DNA of 64,000 nucleotides from Escherichia coli. GTDB taxonomy: Bacteria > Pseudomonadota > Gammaproteobacteria > Enterobacterales > Enterobacteriaceae. The stretch lies in NCBI RefSeq assembly GCF_002854065.1, contig NZ_CP024147.1; one strand, 5' to 3'. Under the pieces are notes generated by a model, which did no database searches, had not been told where the DNA came from, and worked only from the letters and a program-made list of their open reading frames with translations. The position numbers and the translations under genes are program-made. Shown piece by piece: positions 1 to 5,747 of the stretch. The number at the start of each line of letters is the position of its first letter. Position 1 is the stretch's first letter.

Positions 1-520
1 GGTTCGAGTTCTGCTGTGATAACGGAGAGAGACTGCGTGTCACGTTCGCGCTGGACTGCTGTGATCGTGAGGCACTGCACTGGGCGGTCACTACCGGCGG
101 CTTCAACAGTGAAACAGTACAGGACGTCATGCTGGGAGCGGTGGAACGCCGCTTCGGCAACGATCTTCCGTCGTCTCCAGTGGAGTGGCTGACGGATAAT
201 GGTTCATGCTACCGGGCTAATGAAACACGCCAGTTCGCCCGGATGTTGGGACTTGAACCGAAGAACACGGCGGTGCGGAGTCCGGAGAGTAACGGAATAG
301 CAGAGAGCTTCGTGAAAACGATAAAGCGTGACTACATCAGTATCATGCCCAAACCAGACGGGTTAACGGCAGCAAAGAACCTTGCAGAGGCGTTCGAGCA
401 TTATAACGAATGGCATCCGCATAGTGCGCTGGGTTATCGCTCGCCACGGGAATATCTGCGGCAGCGGGCTTGTAATGGGTTAAGTGATAACAGATGTCTG
501 GAAATATAGGGGCAAATCCA
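1..520 (+). mobile_element. IS2 right-end fragment; element continues beyond the window start
   Basis: Frame-0 translation from nt 3 gives IS2 InsD C-terminal half (…[20 protein letters not shown]…[19 protein letters not shown]…NRCLEI); terminal sequence GGGGCAAATCCA ends at 520 as recalled for the IS2 inverted repeat. Confidence 0.85.
3..509 (+). CDS. insD: IS2 transposase InsD (OrfB), 5'-partial at window edge
   Basis: Integrase-core motifs in translation; ORF runs open to window start. Confidence 0.85.
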
Positions 521-1063
521 TTGACCAAGTACTTTTGTTAAAGCGGTAACTCTGCCAAGCAATTCTGCCGACTGATTTTTTGCCTGCTGATAAAGGTCCA
601 TAAAACATATCTTCTTGGCTGGAAAACGTTCCATCAAAGATTGATATTCTTCTAGCTCGCCCAGAATCACAGCAAGTTTGGCTTCATGAATAACTTTTTC
701 TTTTTCTATATCGACCAAGAAACGATCAGCCCCCGGTGCCGACGGTTTCATTTTTTCGGGCATAGCGATAAGCCGCGAATTCTTTGGCAACGCTCTTGGT
801 ATGAAAATAGTTGAATGAAAACTTTCCGTTTTCTTATACACACTTCTGGACTTGCCACCACTACTCTCAATTTTATAGATGAAGCCCAGGGACTCTAACC
901 GAAGAAGTTGTCGGTGAATGAATTTTCTAGCCTCAGTAACTTCTGCGTAGTCATCTGTAATCTTCAGCAAAGCATCCCTGAGATGGATAGCGCAGAACTC
1001 ATTAAAACCCATCTCAATCAATAACTTATACATATATGGATGCAACTTTACTGCAGATTTCAT
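521..1063 (-). pseudogene. Hypothetical protein gene, 3' end interrupted by the IS2 insertion (last 28 codons of the 209-aa ORF are IS2-derived)
   Basis: ORF 434..1063 crosses the IS2 terminus at 520/521; native part ends …LTKVLGQ; no family recognised. Confidence 0.5.
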
Positions 1064-1161
1064 TATAAAAAATCCAAAATAACAAACTTAGAATTGCTAA
1101 GTATACAGAAACCAACGAAACTTAGACAATCTCAGCACCCTAAGGCAATGATGATGAATAC

Positions 1162-1473
1162 GTGGCTCACCCAAACCCGATACCCGAGAGGCTCAAAGCG
1201 GCCAGAACAAAAGCTGGGATCACTCAGAAGGAATTGGGGATCCGAATTGGCATGGAACCCAGCTCGGCGAGTGGTCGTATGAACCATTATGAGAAAGGGA
1301 GACACACTCCTGACATTGATACCCTCAAGCGTATGGCTGATGAACTTGGGGTACCAATTAACTATTTCTTTTGCGAGAACGACATAACTGCAGAATTAGC
1401 ATGTCTGATAGCTAAAATGACTGAGCAGCAGCAGATTGAATTGATTGCTATGCTAAAGAAAAATCAATCTTAG
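1162..1473 (+). CDS. XRE-family helix-turn-helix transcriptional regulator (103 aa, GTG start)
   Basis: HTH signature ITQKELGIRIGMEPSSASGRMNHYEKGRHTPDIDTLKRMADELGVPINYFF; divergent from 521..1063 gene, same strand as downstream ATPase. Confidence 0.7.
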   Translation: MAHPNPIPERLKAARTKAGITQKELGIRIGMEPSSASGRMNHYEKGRHTPDIDTLKRMADELGVPINYFFCENDITAELACLIAKMTEQQQIELIAMLKKNQS

Positions 1474-1861
1474 ATTTTTCACAGAACTCATACCTGAATA
1501 ATATCAGGGTTTCTTAGATATCCTTGACCTGCGACGTATACGCCTCCTCGAAGGGTATCCGCAATTTCTTATCTCATGTATCAGCTACCACCCAAACCGA
1601 ATCTTCATCAGTTCCGGACGTCATGTAATAAACCATAATTCTGGAAATCAAGGAAGCAAATCTAATTGTGTAAATGACCCCGTTGTTTCAGTAATTGAGT
1701 AACATGCCATAAACGGGATTAATAAAGACTTCATTTTAATTTCAACGCCCTTATCAGCCTGAAGTAAAATATGACTTGCAGATCACGTGAATACCTAAGC
1801 TGGAAGAGTATCTTTTACTATTGCAGTCCAACGTGAGAAAACAACAAGTCAACAAGGATTC

Positions 1862-4474
1862 ATGATGCTCAGTAGCGAGTTTTTGCGCTTTTTTCAAACC
1901 TTAAACACAACAGAAGTCCCCAGTAATGTCAGGAAAATAGCGAATCTTGTGTGGGATAACCTAGATGATATAACCCCATTGGGCACTTCGCAGGGTCAGC
2001 GAGTCAGGCGCATTGTCTCTCTGGCACAGTCTGCATGGGATGCCCTCAGTACAGAAGTACAGCCACTACCAGAGCAGACCGCTGAACGCGTCTCCACGTT
2101 TAGTCGGCTGAGAAAGATATCTGTTGGACCATTTAGAGGGTTTGCAAAGCAAGAAGAATTTGATCTGGATTCACGTCTAGTGCTGATTTACGGCCCCAAT
2201 GGTACTGGGAAGTCAAGTTTCTGCGAAGCGCTTGAATATACATTACTGGGCAATGTGGCTGAGGCCGAAAGCAAGCGTTTCCGGAATCAAAACGACTATT
2301 TTAAAAATGCACATGTCAATCGGTTTTCTGTTCCAGAGATAATTGGTGTCGGAGATCATGGGCAGGATGTGTCGATTGAGAATAACGAAGCACAGTATCG
2401 CTTTTGCTTTGTTGAAAAAAATCGTATCGACAACTTTTCAAGAATCGCGGCTCTGGTCCCAACAAGGCAGACTGAACTTATCTCAACACTATTCGGGCTA
2501 GATAGTTTTAATGATTTTGTGCGAAATTTTACATCAGATATTGATGCCAGATACATCGATCTAACAGGCGTAAAAGCAGGTCAGTTGGCAGAAAAGCGCA
2601 AGTCTCTTCTGGCTGCACAGCAGCAATTGGCGACAGGTCAGGCTGCCCTGGAAGGGTTGGCATCAGAGGAACAGACACTGGCTTCTGTTTATCGTGAAGG
2701 CCTGTCTTACCAGCAGATGCTAGCTGAGTTAAAAGGGGATGAACAAAATATCGGAACCATCCGACAGCTTGAAACAGAGTTACAAACGCCACTTCCGAAT
2801 CAGAGTAGCCTGACATCTGCTATTTTGAACGATATAAGTAGCGCTGTTGAAACGGCACTTATAGATCTGGAAAGCAAGCAGAAGCAACTGGCAGAGGCAA
2901 GTCAGCAGGTTTCATATAAAAATTTATTTGAAGCAGTTGTCCAGTTACAGGGTACCAGCCCGGAACAATGCCCTGCATGCCATACCCCTCTTCAGCAAAC
3001 CGCCAAAAACCCCTACAGCCATGCCTGTGATGAATTGCTAAAGCTTGAGTTTCTGTCGACATTACAGGGAGAAATAACTCAGCTGGAAAAATTAATTGGC
3101 CAGTTGATGTACAGTGTTTCACAAGTAATCGGCACATGCTGTCAGTTTTTGCCACATGACAATGCTCTTGAAGTATTCCGAAATGAAAATGGCATCACTT
3201 TATGGCGTAATCTGCGGCAGCAAACAGGAGATGGCATAACTCCCTGGGCTCAGCTTGAAAAACAGGTGTGGCATCTGGAGGGAGAAGATAAAAAAATAGA
3301 GGAAGCAACTAAATTGCGAGAATCCCGTCAGCGGGATCTTGCGAGAATGCGTGAATCTGATCGCCAGATAACGATTTTGCAGACAAGAAGAGATACGATA
3401 GAAAAAACCATCTCTGCGGCTCAGTTGTTGATTGGCAACTTTGATACTGAAAACAGGCAGCTAATTGAAGAAGTTGCTCACGAAGAAGACATTGTAAGGA
3501 AAAACAAAGCAATTTCAGAAGCGTATTCCCGGTTCGTTTTACAGCTGAACGCCTATAAAGAGGGATTACCTCAGAGACTTGTAGCGAATCTTGGGGATCA
3601 CATTGTCACTCTCTACAACGCATTTAACCGTAATGACCCCCCGGGAGAAAAGCTAGCAGGTATCAAACTACCTCTGCTGCAGAATCAGCGACTGGAAGTA
3701 GCGTTTCAGAATAATCCAACGCAACTATTCGATGCCCTGCATGTACTTAGTGAGGGGCATGTACGCTGTATAGGGCTGGCTATTTTGTTGGCAAAAAACA
3801 TTAATGAACAGTGTCCACTTTTGATATTTGATGACCCGGTCAATGCTATTGATGACGATCACAGAGAATCGATTCGGAGAACGTTGTTTGAAGATGCTTT
3901 CTTTGCTGAAAAACAAATCATTCTGGCCTGCCATGGAGAGGAATTCTTCAAAGACATCCAGAATTTATTGCCAGCGCCGGTTGCCGCACAGTCCAAGACT
4001 TTCAGCTTCTTACCGCGTCTTGACGAATTGCATATCCGCGTAGATTTTAACTGCGCTCCCAGGAACTATATTATTTCTGCACGAGGGCATTATGAGCGTA
4101 ATGAGATTCGGGAGGCGCTTGCAAAATGCAGACAGTCACTTGAATCGTTGATGAAGGGGAGAGTCTGGCGATATGTAAATAAATATGGTGATGGTAATCT
4201 TAGTCTCAAGCTAAGGTCAGCAACGGCACCTATTGAGTTACGTAACTTGTCGGATCAATTGAAGAAACAGATCAATAAAGCTGAGTTCCGTGACCAAAAT
4301 AAAAACGCCGTATTCACACCAATTGATGTGTTAACTGGGCTAAGTGGAGAATCACGAGAATGGCGCTATCTAAATAAAGGTACGCATGAGGAAGACGGCA
4401 GGGCTGAGTTTGATCGAGCAACAGTAGAAACCATGATTTCTGCCCTTGAGGCGCTCGATCAGGCTGTGAGTTAA
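1862..4474 (+). CDS. Rad50/SbcC-like ABC ATPase with central CxxC zinc hook and C-terminal putative nuclease domain (RloC-like anticodon-nuclease candidate), 870 aa
   Basis: RBS AAGGA at 1852; Walker A GPNGTGKSS (nt 2192-2218); CPAC at nt 2969-2980 at the midpoint between the ATPase halves; signature-like LSEGH, Walker B LLIFDDP (nt ~3818-3838), H-loop ACHGEEF; C-terminal ~200 aa with REWRYLNKGTH (R-x6-H). Confidence 0.55.
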   Translation: MMLSSEFLRFFQTLNTTEVPSNVRKIANLVWDNLDDITPLGTSQGQRVRRIVSLAQSAWDALSTEVQPLPEQTAERVSTFSRLRKISVGPFRGFAKQEEFDLDSRLVLIYGPNGTGKSSFCEALEYTLLGNVAEAESKRFRNQNDYFKNAHVNRFSVPEIIGVGDHGQDVSIENNEAQYRFCFVEKNRIDNFSRIAALVPTRQTELISTLFGLDSFNDFVRNFTSDIDARYIDLTGVKAGQLAEKRKSLLAAQQQLATGQAALEGLASEEQTLASVYREGLSYQQMLAELKGDEQNIGTIRQLETELQTPLPNQSSLTSAILNDISSAVETALIDLESKQKQLAEASQQVSYKNLFEAVVQLQGTSPEQCPACHTPLQQTAKNPYSHACDELLKLEFLSTLQGEITQLEKLIGQLMYSVSQVIGTCCQFLPHDNALEVFRNENGITLWRNLRQQTGDGITPWAQLEKQVWHLEGEDKKIEEATKLRESRQRDLARMRESDRQITILQTRRDTIEKTISAAQLLIGNFDTENRQLIEEVAHEEDIVRKNKAISEAYSRFVLQLNAYKEGLPQRLVANLGDHIVTLYNAFNRNDPPGEKLAGIKLPLLQNQRLEVAFQNNPTQLFDALHVLSEGHVRCIGLAILLAKNINEQCPLLIFDDPVNAIDDDHRESIRRTLFEDAFFAEKQIILACHGEEFFKDIQNLLPAPVAAQSKTFSFLPRLDELHIRVDFNCAPRNYIISARGHYERNEIREALAKCRQSLESLMKGRVWRYVNKYGDGNLSLKLRSATAPIELRNLSDQLKKQINKAEFRDQNKNAVFTPIDVLTGLSGESREWRYLNKGTHEEDGRAEFDRATVETMISALEALDQAVS

Positions 4475-4607
4475 TATATGTAAAGTGGTCTATAAAATTG
4501 GCCACAACATGAGAATTACTGTTCGTTGGTTCCTGGCACAGAGCGTCTGTCAGATTTAGTTTAGCTCTGTGTCATACCAGTGGTAGCTCAAGTCGCGGCT
4601 AATGCAA

Positions 4608-5336
4608 TTAATCACTGAATACCAACGAATCTAATACACCTTGTCCACTATGAACTCCTCCTTCAACTGACTCTGCTGATTTGCTACGGATCAAATACCC
4701 AGCAAAACTGTGATCAGCGCTAGATGCATTGTTACCTATCTGGACGGAGAACATTCCTAGTTCGCTGACCAGATCAGTAACCTGATATAACTCCCCTTTA
4801 CGGACAACCAGAGAAGGTGTAGCTCGCGGGACAGGATGTATCCGACGCATGAACGACCAGGATTGATATTGCAGCGGGTCAAGTCTTGCCAGTTTTAACT
4901 GGATATCAGAGCCAAACAGACAATGCCCACCCCCTTCGCCCTGGTTTTTGAGAACCCATGAATCAGAAGGAGACTCTTTTACAATGCTGATTGTATCAGG
5001 GCTAACAGGAAGCATTTCGCCCAACACCATTTTTATGATATCAACCTCTTCCGGCTTCAGTCCAAAAGCAATCAGTTCATCGCACCCCAAATGAGAGAGC
5101 AACATTTGTACTCGCTTACTTGTCGCAAGTTGCTGAGCGACTGTTGCATTCACCGCAACTCGGTGCTGCTCAATCAATACTCGCGTGGCCATTAGCGTCT
5201 GGCAACACTCCTTCTCATTGAGACTGGCGGCTTCATAATCTGAGTATTGATATCCGGCACGTAAGTAAACAGAAGTAGTATGGGTGTATGAACTTGTCAT
5301 TGTTTTGACATTTATCAAATATATTCGATTATGCAT
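4608..5336 (-). CDS. Hypothetical protein (242 aa; alternative start at 5300 gives 230 aa), divergent from arsR; contains vicinal Cys pair (KECCQT)
   Basis: Only long ORF covering this interval; convergent with the ATPase gene; no recognised family; weak RBS at both candidate starts. Confidence 0.45.
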   Translation of the reverse strand: MHNRIYLINVKTMTSSYTHTTSVYLRAGYQYSDYEAASLNEKECCQTLMATRVLIEQHRVAVNATVAQQLATSKRVQMLLSHLGCDELIAFGLKPEEVDIIKMVLGEMLPVSPDTISIVKESPSDSWVLKNQGEGGGHCLFGSDIQLKLARLDPLQYQSWSFMRRIHPVPRATPSLVVRKGELYQVTDLVSELGMFSVQIGNNASSADHSFAGYLIRSKSAESVEGGVHSGQGVLDSLVFSD

Positions 5337-5353
5337 ATGTGTTGTTGATTTTC

Positions 5354-5368
5354 ATCTCCGCAGGAGAT
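5354..5368. promoter_or_regulatory. Perfect 15-bp palindrome ATCTCCGCAGGAGAT in the divergent promoter region just upstream of the arsR RBS
   Basis: Seen directly; RBS AGGAGG at 5387-5392. Confidence 0.3.
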
Positions 5369-5393
5369 ATCGTTACCTAAACGAACAGGAGGA

Positions 5394-5747
5394 ATGATGT
5401 CGCTTACTTCCCTACAACTCTTTAAGAATCTGTCTGATGAAACACGTCTGGGTATTGTTCTCATACTCAGAACTATGGGGGAGTTGTGCGTATGTGATCT
5501 TTGCACTGCACTTGATCAATCACAGCCTAAGATCTCCCGGCATCTGGCTATGTTGCGAGAAAGTGGGATTTTGCTTGATAGTAAACACGGTAAATGGGTT
5601 CATTACCGGTTATCCCCACACATTCCTTCATGGGCTGCACAGATTATTGAGCAGGCCTGGTTAAGCCAACAGGACGATCTTCAGGCCATCGCCCGTAAAC
5701 TGGCTTCAGTCAACTGCACTAACAGCAGTAAGGCTATTTGTATTTAA
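5394..5747 (+). CDS. arsR: Arsenical resistance operon repressor ArsR (R773-type, ELCVCDLC As(III) site)
   Basis: 117 aa; near-identity to recalled R773 ArsR (…LQLFKNLSDETRLGIVL…ELCVCDLC…). Confidence 0.92.
   Translation: MMSLTSLQLFKNLSDETRLGIVLILRTMGELCVCDLCTALDQSQPKISRHLAMLRESGILLDSKHGKWVHYRLSPHIPSWAAQIIEQAWLSQQDDLQAIARKLASVNCTNSSKAICI

Follow-up and report, generated by a model that had tools for sequence, protein, structure and literature searches.

Genes and features at the locus

The subject of this analysis is a gene of Escherichia coli that encodes a Rad50/LmuB-like zinc-hook ATP-binding cassette (ABC) ATPase with a C-terminal domain of predicted HEPN fold, a combination that points to a single-protein defence nuclease. 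The gene lies in a stretch of 64,000 nucleotides of contig NZ_CP024147.1 (assembly GCF_002854065.1), referred to here as the window. A reading made from the letters alone (the sequence-only reading) had described positions 1162-4474 as a module of an XRE-type regulator and an RloC-like ATPase with a nuclease-like tail. The surroundings and the RefSeq annotation were read in the E. coli CUWW06 chromosome (NZ_CP182139.1), which is 100% identical over window positions 400-5400. The open reading frame (ORF) at 1862-4474 (plus strand) was confirmed to encode 870 aa, and the RefSeq start is at 1865. Residue numbers for the protein follow the 870-aa numbering, and those of the AlphaFold2 (AF2) model, including its predicted local distance difference test (pLDDT) values, follow the 869-aa numbering. 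All motifs quoted in the sequence-only reading translate at the expected coordinates. The features of the gene are as follows.

1762-1861, plus strand: upstream stretch of ~100 nt moving with the ATPase gene, probably promoter and 5' untranslated region (UTR); ribosome-binding site AAGGA at 1852-1856
1865-4474, plus strand: solitary gene for the Rad50/LmuB-like zinc-hook ABC ATPase with HEPN domain; RefSeq coding sequence WP_032288318.1, 'AAA family ATPase', 869 aa; 870 aa from the upstream ATG at 1862
1868-2044, plus strand: N-terminal helical domain, residues 3-61; AF2 helices 2-12, 20-31, 33-36 and 42-60, pLDDT 89-95
2105-2524, plus strand: ABC head N-lobe, residues 82-221; Pfam SMC_N, AAA_23 and AAA_15; Walker A within
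2192-2218, plus strand: Walker A GPNGTGKSS, residues 111-119, by translation at exact coordinates
2570-2953, plus strand: ascending helical arm, residues 237-364; AF2 helices 236-276, 282-290, 298-306, 318-348 and 352-363
2969-2980, plus strand: CPAC zinc-hook motif, residues 370-373 (C370 and C373), in the loop joining the arms (364-382 in AF2)
3011-3625, plus strand: descending helical arm, residues 384-588; AF2 helices 383-428, 434-438, 444-451, 460-529, 531-573 and 577-587
3653-4012, plus strand: ABC head C-lobe, residues 598-717, with signature, Walker B, D-loop and H-loop inside
3746-3760, plus strand: signature LSEGH, residues 629-633
3818-3838, plus strand: Walker B LLIFDDP, residues 653-659; LLIFDD at 3818-3835, with DD replacing DE
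3842-3862, plus strand: D-loop NAID followed by D-D-H667; D664 and H667
3920-3943, plus strand: ILACHGEE with H-loop H691, codon 3932-3934, translation checked
4067-4471, plus strand: C-terminal HEPN-fold domain, residues 736-870, predicted RNase effector; R757 at 4130-4132, E761 at 4142-4144, N838 and H842
4241-4255, plus strand: motif R794-N795-x2-D798 of the query's clade, in the HEPN-fold domain
4355-4387, plus strand: REWRYLNKGTH, residues 832-842
4364-4387, plus strand: motif R835-x2-N838-x3-H842 of the query's clade, in the HEPN-fold domain

The copies of the gene in E. coli, Morganella and Buttiauxella share the upstream stretch at 1762-1861, and the intergenic sequence farther upstream is unrelated, which suggests that the gene travels with its own promoter. 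This stretch, in which an imperfect inverted repeat is present (1763-1772 and 1810-1819), may act as a promoter or as a regulatory 5' UTR.

Conservation and predicted structure

Relatives of ~870 aa with 56-84% identity were found by a word-indexed search in Enterobacterales, other Gammaproteobacteria and methylotrophs, all under generic names. A HMMER search of 1.84 billion representatives returned 285 clusters (50% identity) with E<1e-30; most clusters among the matches listed are end-to-end relatives of ~850-920 aa, down to ~25% identity, and the rest are fragments. Among the matches listed in AFDB50 and a genome scan, the family is carried by cultured Firmicutes (Paenibacillus, Neobacillus, Lachnospira and Liquorilactobacillus), by the Spirochaetes Leptospira and Treponema, and by metagenome-assembled genomes labelled Cyanobacteria, Cloacimonadota and Myxococcota.

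Conservation was counted in a deep alignment (A3) of 77 sequences reaching 25% identity. The G/N/G/G/K residues of Walker A are invariant, as are S630, G632 and H633 of the signature and D657, D658, N661, D664, H667 and H691 in the remainder of the C-lobe. C370 and P371 are present in all 77 sequences and C373 in 76. The tail residues R757, E761, N838 and H842 are each found in 77/77, and W769, W834, G840 and F850 are nearly invariant. Since they are invariant or nearly so in 77 sequences down to 25% identity, the motifs of the ATPase are not chance. The split ABC head proposed from the letters is borne out by the Pfam matches of the N-lobe together with the invariant motifs of the C-lobe.

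The AF2 model built on A3 has a mean pLDDT of 89.7 and a predicted template modelling score (pTM) of 0.69. It consists of an N-terminal helical part (2-60), a linker, the N-lobe (81-220), ascending helices (236-363), the CPAC loop (364-382), descending helices (383-587), the C-lobe (597-716) and an all-helical tail (735-868). A zinc hook of the Rad50 type, carried by a long helical insert, agrees with the conservation of CPxC and with the helices that flank the loop, and three family members match Pfam Rad50_zn_hook weakly. The CxxC had been placed almost exactly at the midpoint; although it does lie close to the protein's middle, the arms are unequal in the model, with ~128 residues ascending and ~205 descending. 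The extension ahead of the P-loop, called atypical in the sequence-only reading, is a helical domain that is kept along the ATPase family and specific to it, and scans against Pfam and PADLOC gave zero matches to it. Behind this domain, the linker (residues 62-80) is modelled with low confidence (pLDDT 66-79).

In a Foldseek search of the PDB with the whole chain, Rad50 of C. thermophilum ranked first (3e-10) and LmuB of Salmonella Lamassu second (2.6e-9), before cohesin, condensin and JetC; by sequence, the PDB gave matches to Rad50 and SMC heads only, all weak. The structural matches of the tail were 4nqf (9.9), Csm6 (9.1), SsR10 (8.8) and the HEPN domain of sacsin (8.1), followed by TT1696, HI0074, HEPN toxins from HEPN-MNT systems, the HEPN domain of AbiA, and AbiV. 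The tail has the four-helix up-down HEPN fold, and these matches to HEPN proteins make the label 'HEPN-like' correct at the level of the fold. The same label had been attached to the R-x6-H of REWRYLNKGTH. In terms of the catalytic HEPN motif Rx4-6H, in which a polar residue follows the R, H842 and N838 (at -4) are invariant, but the arginine (R835) is limited to the query and its own clade (11/77). The family-wide element is R757-x3-E761, which lies in the long first helix and precedes H842 by 80 residues, with a Thr just before the His. The query's clade also has R794-N795-x2-D/E798-x43-H842. The literature describes HEPN families in which the Arg is displaced, and also non-catalytic HEPN domains (PMC3710099). 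An invariant R, E, N and H in an otherwise fast-evolving domain argue for catalysis. A profile of the C-terminal domain searched against 5.8 billion proteins retrieved fragments of the same family only and no other architectures, so that known HEPN families are unlinked to it by sequence.

Computation thus shows a Rad50/LmuB-like head, a long antiparallel helical arm with a CPxC hook, and a HEPN-fold domain with invariant R, E, N and H.

Genomic context and distribution

The context of the gene was compared across 52 loci, drawn from the window, nine contigs that encode the protein, four plasmid loci and 39 genome loci. When the ORFs within ±6 kb of the gene were compared all against all by BLASTP, there was no neighbour family in at least four of the 52 loci, the maximum being three, and the ATPase gene is therefore solitary. 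Neither sbcD, hsd nor lmuA/C adjoins it in the window, in agreement with the sequence-only reading, which had seen no sbcD or hsd partner.

The mobile context proposed for the gene recurs across the loci examined, which include defence islands, prophage ends and plasmids. Nine of 20 immediate neighbours are strong PADLOC defence matches, including BrxL, DRT UG5-nitrilase, a type III methyltransferase, HsdR, Shedu SduA, two RmrA regulators and bSEFIR. One copy (L036, 6001-8646) lies inside an operon of the bacteriophage exclusion (BREX) type, between PglX and PglZ, and another (L037, 6001-8619) directly follows PglZ-BrxL. Other copies are found between an integrase with an HsdS fragment and an AIPR gene, alongside AlpA, Toprim and DUF927 primase-type genes in a satellite-like island, between icd and a prophage integrase, beside an MmeI/Eco57I-type enzyme and, in E. 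coli strain 165, at the tail-fibre/invertase end of a prophage. By tblastn, 31 plasmids carry the ATPase, 21 of which are conjugative, and carbapenemase-carrying conjugative plasmids are among the carriers. A family member is held by 19 of 5426 complete E. coli genomes.

The gene order at L036 is BrxC, an SLFN/AlbA-like gene, PglX, the ATPase, a hypothetical gene, a DndB-like gene, PglZ and BrxL. The placement of these copies within or next to BREX resembles the tendency of PrrC and RloC to occur as a 'restriction-linked ORF'.

Relation to RloC

Fusions of ABC ATPases with HEPN domains, notably RloC, have been known since 2008-2013. RloC is a zinc-responsive, wobble-nucleotide-excising anticodon nuclease, and it sets a precedent for the control of a fused anticodon nuclease by a zinc hook and a DNA-dependent ATPase (PMC2610378, PMC3458546). 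Its motif is R-x3-E-x36-52-H with a Ser ahead of the His (PMC2610378). The query shares with RloC the order of parts in one polypeptide (ABC head, coiled-coil insert with CxxC hook, C-terminal HEPN-type nuclease), the DD of Walker B (RloC 'DDPISSLD'), the spacing of the D-loop followed by a conserved polar/His position, and the motif N-x3-[ST]H preceded by W/Y. Both are mostly solitary and often restriction-linked or borne on mobile elements. Table S1 of PMC2610378 lists several 'RloC orthologues' of 866-874 aa, among them entries of 868 aa from Erwinia carotovora SCRI1043, with a helix-turn-helix (HTH) neighbour, and from P. aeruginosa PA14, with a 'poor ACNase triad, poor Walker B'; the 866-874-aa entries may be the present family. 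The protein could simply be RloC, that is, a divergent orthologue of the anticodon nuclease, already covered by the RloC family and perhaps in the 2008 list. Shared architecture, shared motifs and these entries favour such an assignment, as does the match of 15 of the 77 members to Pfam AAA_13 at E<=1e-3 (best 6e-13), but the comparisons with a bona fide RloC make it unlikely.

The control was the 746-aa RloC of the Shewanella sp. ANA-3 plasmid (NC_008573.1, 110255-112495; L024, 35255-37495), taken from the 2008 orthologue table. It matches AAA_13 at 4e-178 across all 713 model positions, PADLOC PDC-S06 at 3e-266 over its full length and PADLOC PrrC at 1.6e-13; PDC-S06 appears to be the RloC family, given this full-length match. 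The query, in contrast, has no family-level match to AAA_13 (independent E-values of 9e-6 for residues 104-549 and 0.09 for residues 649-716, with the nuclease part unmatched) and reaches at most 9e-11 on PDC-S06, in the C-lobe only, from Walker B to the H-loop. Its head scores as SMC_N/AAA_23, the Rad50/SbcC-like type, and the family behaves alike: SMC_N is matched by 77/77 members and AAA_23 by 68, and all 77 score better on SMC_N and AAA_23 than on AAA_13. The plasmid sets retrieved by tblastn with the query and with the control RloC do not overlap. The query further differs from RloC in an additional conserved N-terminal domain of ~80 aa, in its hook (CPAC[KH]T vs C-x-F-C-G/Q), in a larger HEPN domain with the invariant R-x3-E 80 residues before the His, and in a family length tightly fixed at ~870 aa. 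In the query's clade, the additional R794-based triad has a spacing inside the RloC range. By these profile and motif comparisons, the protein has the architecture and motif dialect of RloC/PrrC, yet is outside the RloC family as currently modelled. Of the RloC-type architecture in the sequence-only reading, the overall order of parts therefore stands, with the qualification that the protein is outside the family modelled by AAA_13 and PDC-S06.

On the ANA-3 plasmid, RloC adjoins a type I restriction-modification (R-M) system, an IS200/IS605 element and an unrelated 103-aa HTH gene.

Relation to PrrC, Lamassu and other ABC systems

The residues essential in EcoPrrC have been reported as D215-D216 of Walker B, where Glu is not tolerated, SSLD222 of the D-loop followed by D223, N224 and H225, H251 of the H-loop, and R320, N321, E324, R349, N352 and H356 of the nuclease (PMC3025547). 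The query shares the DD of Walker B and the D-loop followed by x-x-H, and in its clade the nuclease pattern R-N-x2-E ... R-x2-N-x3-H is matched residue for residue. In both proteins, a fused ABC NTPase governs a HEPN RNase, a role that is predicted for the query. PrrC differs in its size of ~400 aa, in lacking a coiled coil or zinc hook, and in being always within a type Ic hsd locus (EcoprrI-like) that silences it, whereas no hsd genes flank the ATPase in the window. The query does not match the PADLOC PrrC model.

The best PADLOC scores overall are those of LmuB (3e-26), followed by mad3 and DndD/PbeC, none of them at family level. LmuB of Lamassu resembles the query in its Rad50-like ABC head, its folded coiled coil, its zinc hook and its residence in defence islands, and it is both the top PADLOC match of the query and among its best structural matches. 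The PADLOC and structural matches favour a different explanation, in which the protein is an SMC-like DNA-directed defence or maintenance protein (orphan LmuB, or DndD-, PbeC- or SspC-like), the HEPN tail serves non-catalytic dimerisation or nucleic-acid binding, and the effector acts on DNA or in trans. The loss of the Rx4-6H arginine from most of the family, together with the known non-catalytic HEPN domains, points in the same direction. Nevertheless, such an explanation is quite unlikely. LmuA/LmuC, dnd, ssp, pbe or any recurrent partner is absent across the 52 loci, and the effector is fused instead; that effector is a predicted HEPN RNase rather than the released DNase or other LmuA domain of Lamassu. 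The Walker B of the query has an invariant DD, unlike that of LmuB, in which Gln replaces the catalytic Glu (the DQ variant; 10.1101/2025.03.14.643221). The invariant R, E, N and H of the tail, in a domain that evolves fast, likewise argue for catalysis. Orphan LmuB and a DndD-type modification ATPase were rejected on these grounds; a housekeeping SbcC/RecN/RecF was rejected as well, as set out below.

Anantharaman et al. (2013) have described other ABC-HEPN fusions, the APECO1_4465 and ERFG_01251 types, which are prophage-borne. Compared by description, they share with the query the concept of an ABC ATPase-HEPN protein borne on prophages or islands and independent of R-M. The APEC O1 entry in the 2008 RloC list has 738 aa, compared with ~870 aa for the query.

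The XRE gene and the surrounding island

The sequence-only reading had joined the ATPase to the XRE gene upstream of it, the ORF of which was confirmed. The features of this region are as follows.

1086-1136, no strand assigned: operator-like palindrome ACTTAGAATTGCTAAGT at 1086-1102 and a degenerate copy at 1120-1136, in the divergent promoter region of a hypothetical gene (hyp) and XRE
1162-1473, plus strand: XRE/controller-type HTH gene, 103 aa; PADLOC Control_protein 5e-26; adjoins the ATPase, outside its module
1493-1508, plus strand: terminator-like hairpin just 3' of the XRE stop, from a consensus scan (weak evidence)

A two-gene regulated system of XRE and ATPase, as regulator plus toxin, would agree with the shared strand and the spacing of 388 bp, with the HTH neighbours recorded in the RloC table, and with the RmrA-type regulators (XRE HTH fused to a CapP-like metallopeptidase) that two Xanthomonadales genomes have ~90 bp ahead of the ATPase, in the same orientation (L056, 4745-5911; L057, 4659-5906). 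Such a system is very unlikely, however. None of the other ATPase loci examined, those of 17 further E. coli among them, has the XRE gene beside the ATPase. A trio of DEAD/DEAH helicase, hypothetical gene and divergent XRE recurs on plasmid pWL297-blaNDM-6 with ~80% nucleotide identity, where it adjoins a cyclic-oligonucleotide-based antiphage signalling system (CBASS) and lacks the ATPase. The palindrome copies are confined to the hyp/XRE promoter region, where promoter-like hexamers on both strands overlap them, and none is found upstream of the ATPase, which has its own conserved 100 nt. An R-M controller (C) protein is a small HTH protein encoded beside an R-M system, with C-box palindromes upstream. 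XRE has the Control_protein match and the pair of palindromes, but no R-M genes lie beside it; its partners are the hypothetical gene and the helicase. From the trio without the ATPase on pWL297, the placement of the palindromes, the hairpin behind XRE and the XRE-less copies of the ATPase in E. coli, XRE is best assigned to the hyp-helicase module and not to the ATPase, and the proposed pairing has to be given up. The two Xanthomonadales loci indicate that lineage-specific regulators may exist, not that a regulator is a defining component; the placement of RmrA hints at DNA-damage-responsive transcriptional control in Xanthomonadales.

The three-gene module comprises window positions 434-1473 and the helicase to the left of the window (L001, 12377-13765, minus strand; L002, 8592-10543). 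The hypothetical protein, divergent from XRE, has 189-225 aa, and the helicase has 463 aa with a weak PADLOC match to PbeA (4e-9). The trio may be a defence module candidate by itself. An IS2-disrupted gene had been placed at the flank of the ATPase; an element of the insertion sequence (IS) IS2, the right end of which occupies window 1-~510, instead separates the hypothetical gene from the helicase that is its partner. Because of this insertion the hypothetical ORF runs into IS2 (209 aa vs 189 aa in strain 100416), and the hyp-helicase operon is probably disrupted in CUWW06.

The island around these genes is flanked by gorA and the native ars/dinQ region (L001, NZ_CP182139.1 record 4426063-4448760). 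Besides a site-specific integrase, it has arsenic genes in two clusters, one of arsR-D-A-B-C and another of arsA/arsD/arsH together with a factor of the sigma-70 family. Strain 100416 has at the same site a decayed island with IS3 and IS1 insertions and an IS-truncated ATPase. Between the ATPase and the arsR/arsD/arsA/arsB/arsC operon lies a glutathione-synthetase-like ORF of 242 aa (4608-5336, minus strand), an odd truncated eukaryote-type enzyme in an arsenic island. It matches the C-terminal half only of TIGR01986, the eukaryotic-type glutathione synthase (E 1e-29, model positions 263-471 of 473); the RefSeq coding sequence is shorter and is named 'glutathione synthetase'.

Comparison with Rad50 and SbcC

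Rad50 is the best solved-structure match of the whole chain and shares the CP[AV]C-type hook, whereas the query lacks an Mre11/SbcD partner, has far shorter arms, ends in a HEPN domain and shows an accessory, mobile distribution. A housekeeping DNA-repair ATPase of the SbcC/RecN/RecF type, suggested by generic annotations ('double-strand break repair', 'RecF', 'SMC') and by weak NCBIfam matches to RecF and Rad50, is effectively refuted by the distribution of the gene (0.35% of E. coli genomes; plasmids, prophages and islands), with the absence of SbcD, the fused HEPN domain and NCBIfam scores far under the cut-offs (28 bits vs 700 for Rad50) on the same side. Clear orthology to these proteins had been named in the sequence-only reading as an outcome that would refute it, and the NCBIfam scores and the genome counts speak against it.

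Proposed function and mechanism

By analogy with RloC, PrrC and Lamassu, the gene would encode a self-contained, single-protein, abortive-infection-type defence nuclease, to which we give a probability of roughly 0.6. A role in defence is likely, and an RNase as the effector is probable to nearly the same degree; the tRNA anticodon as the specific target is possible by analogy, but less likely than not.

In the proposed mechanism, two protomers would pair through the zinc hook and through ATP-dependent engagement of the heads, as in RloC and Lamassu. The module of head and arm would respond to DNA ends, DNA damage, foreign DNA or another such sign in the DNA that infection is under way or that restriction has failed, and the resulting conformational change would free the otherwise silenced HEPN domains. 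These would cut RNA without metal ions, with tRNA anticodon loops as the likeliest target, as for PrrC and RloC, and the cleavage would halt translation and phage production. The gene would carry its own promoter region and require no partner gene, the adjacent XRE not being part of the system. It is mobile and turns up in defence islands, in BREX and restriction loci, at the ends of prophages and on conjugative plasmids.

Several observations weigh against the proposal of a defence nuclease. No copies of the ATPase were found in the 50,697 phage genomes searched. The canonical arginine of the HEPN motif is not kept family-wide, R835 being confined to the 11 of 77 sequences given above; R794, N795 and E798 also vary across the family, and the spacing of 80 residues in the family-wide R-x3-E motif is outside the range of 36-52 in RloC. 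Only in the ABC motifs does the sequence resemble that of true RloC: an hhalign comparison between the family profile and the ANA-3 RloC gave a probability of 68% over 80 columns, from Walker B to the H-loop, and the C-terminal profile against an 8-sequence alignment of RloC C-termini gave 1-8%, too low to decide homology. This low-probability alignment pairs YLNKGTH with WINDGSH, and the eight assembled true RloC sequences share the core '[WY]-I-N-[DR]-[GE]-S-H'. We infer the RNA target and the trigger of the ATPase from analogy only. No model in a defence database covers the family, the PADLOC models giving weak, local matches only. In the supplements of DefensePredictor, WP_032288318 and WP_102803754 are not among the entries.

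A more far-reaching version of the defence-nuclease proposal is that the family is a distinct, ancient and widespread one-gene immune system, a 'one-protein Lamassu/Rad50' in which an SMC-like zinc-hook ATPase that senses DNA ends or DNA damage directly gates the fused HEPN RNase. It would be separate from RloC or an early split from it, its N-terminal domain would be phage-sensing or autoinhibitory, and its RNA target could differ from the anticodon cut of PrrC and RloC. This version is tentative and, as a whole, rather doubtful.

Significance

Compared with the ABC-HEPN fusions already known, what is new is, on the sequence evidence, a large and sharply defined family of ~870 aa that is outside the RloC, PrrC and LmuB models and absent from PADLOC, with an N-terminal domain of its own and a distinct HEPN subtype. 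For annotation, labels such as 'AAA family ATPase / DndD / RecF / SMC' on proteins of ~870 aa conceal a predicted HEPN nuclease. If confirmed, the family would be a compact one-gene defence system of 2.6 kb that is overlooked by current PADLOC models and ranges over Proteobacteria, Firmicutes and the metagenome-assembled genomes with the labels Cyanobacteria, Cloacimonadota and Myxococcota. Moreover, it would offer a tractable model, in one polypeptide, of how a Rad50-type zinc-hook ATPase turns DNA sensing into effector activation, a question that is now studied in the multi-subunit Lamassu and Mre11-Rad50 complexes.

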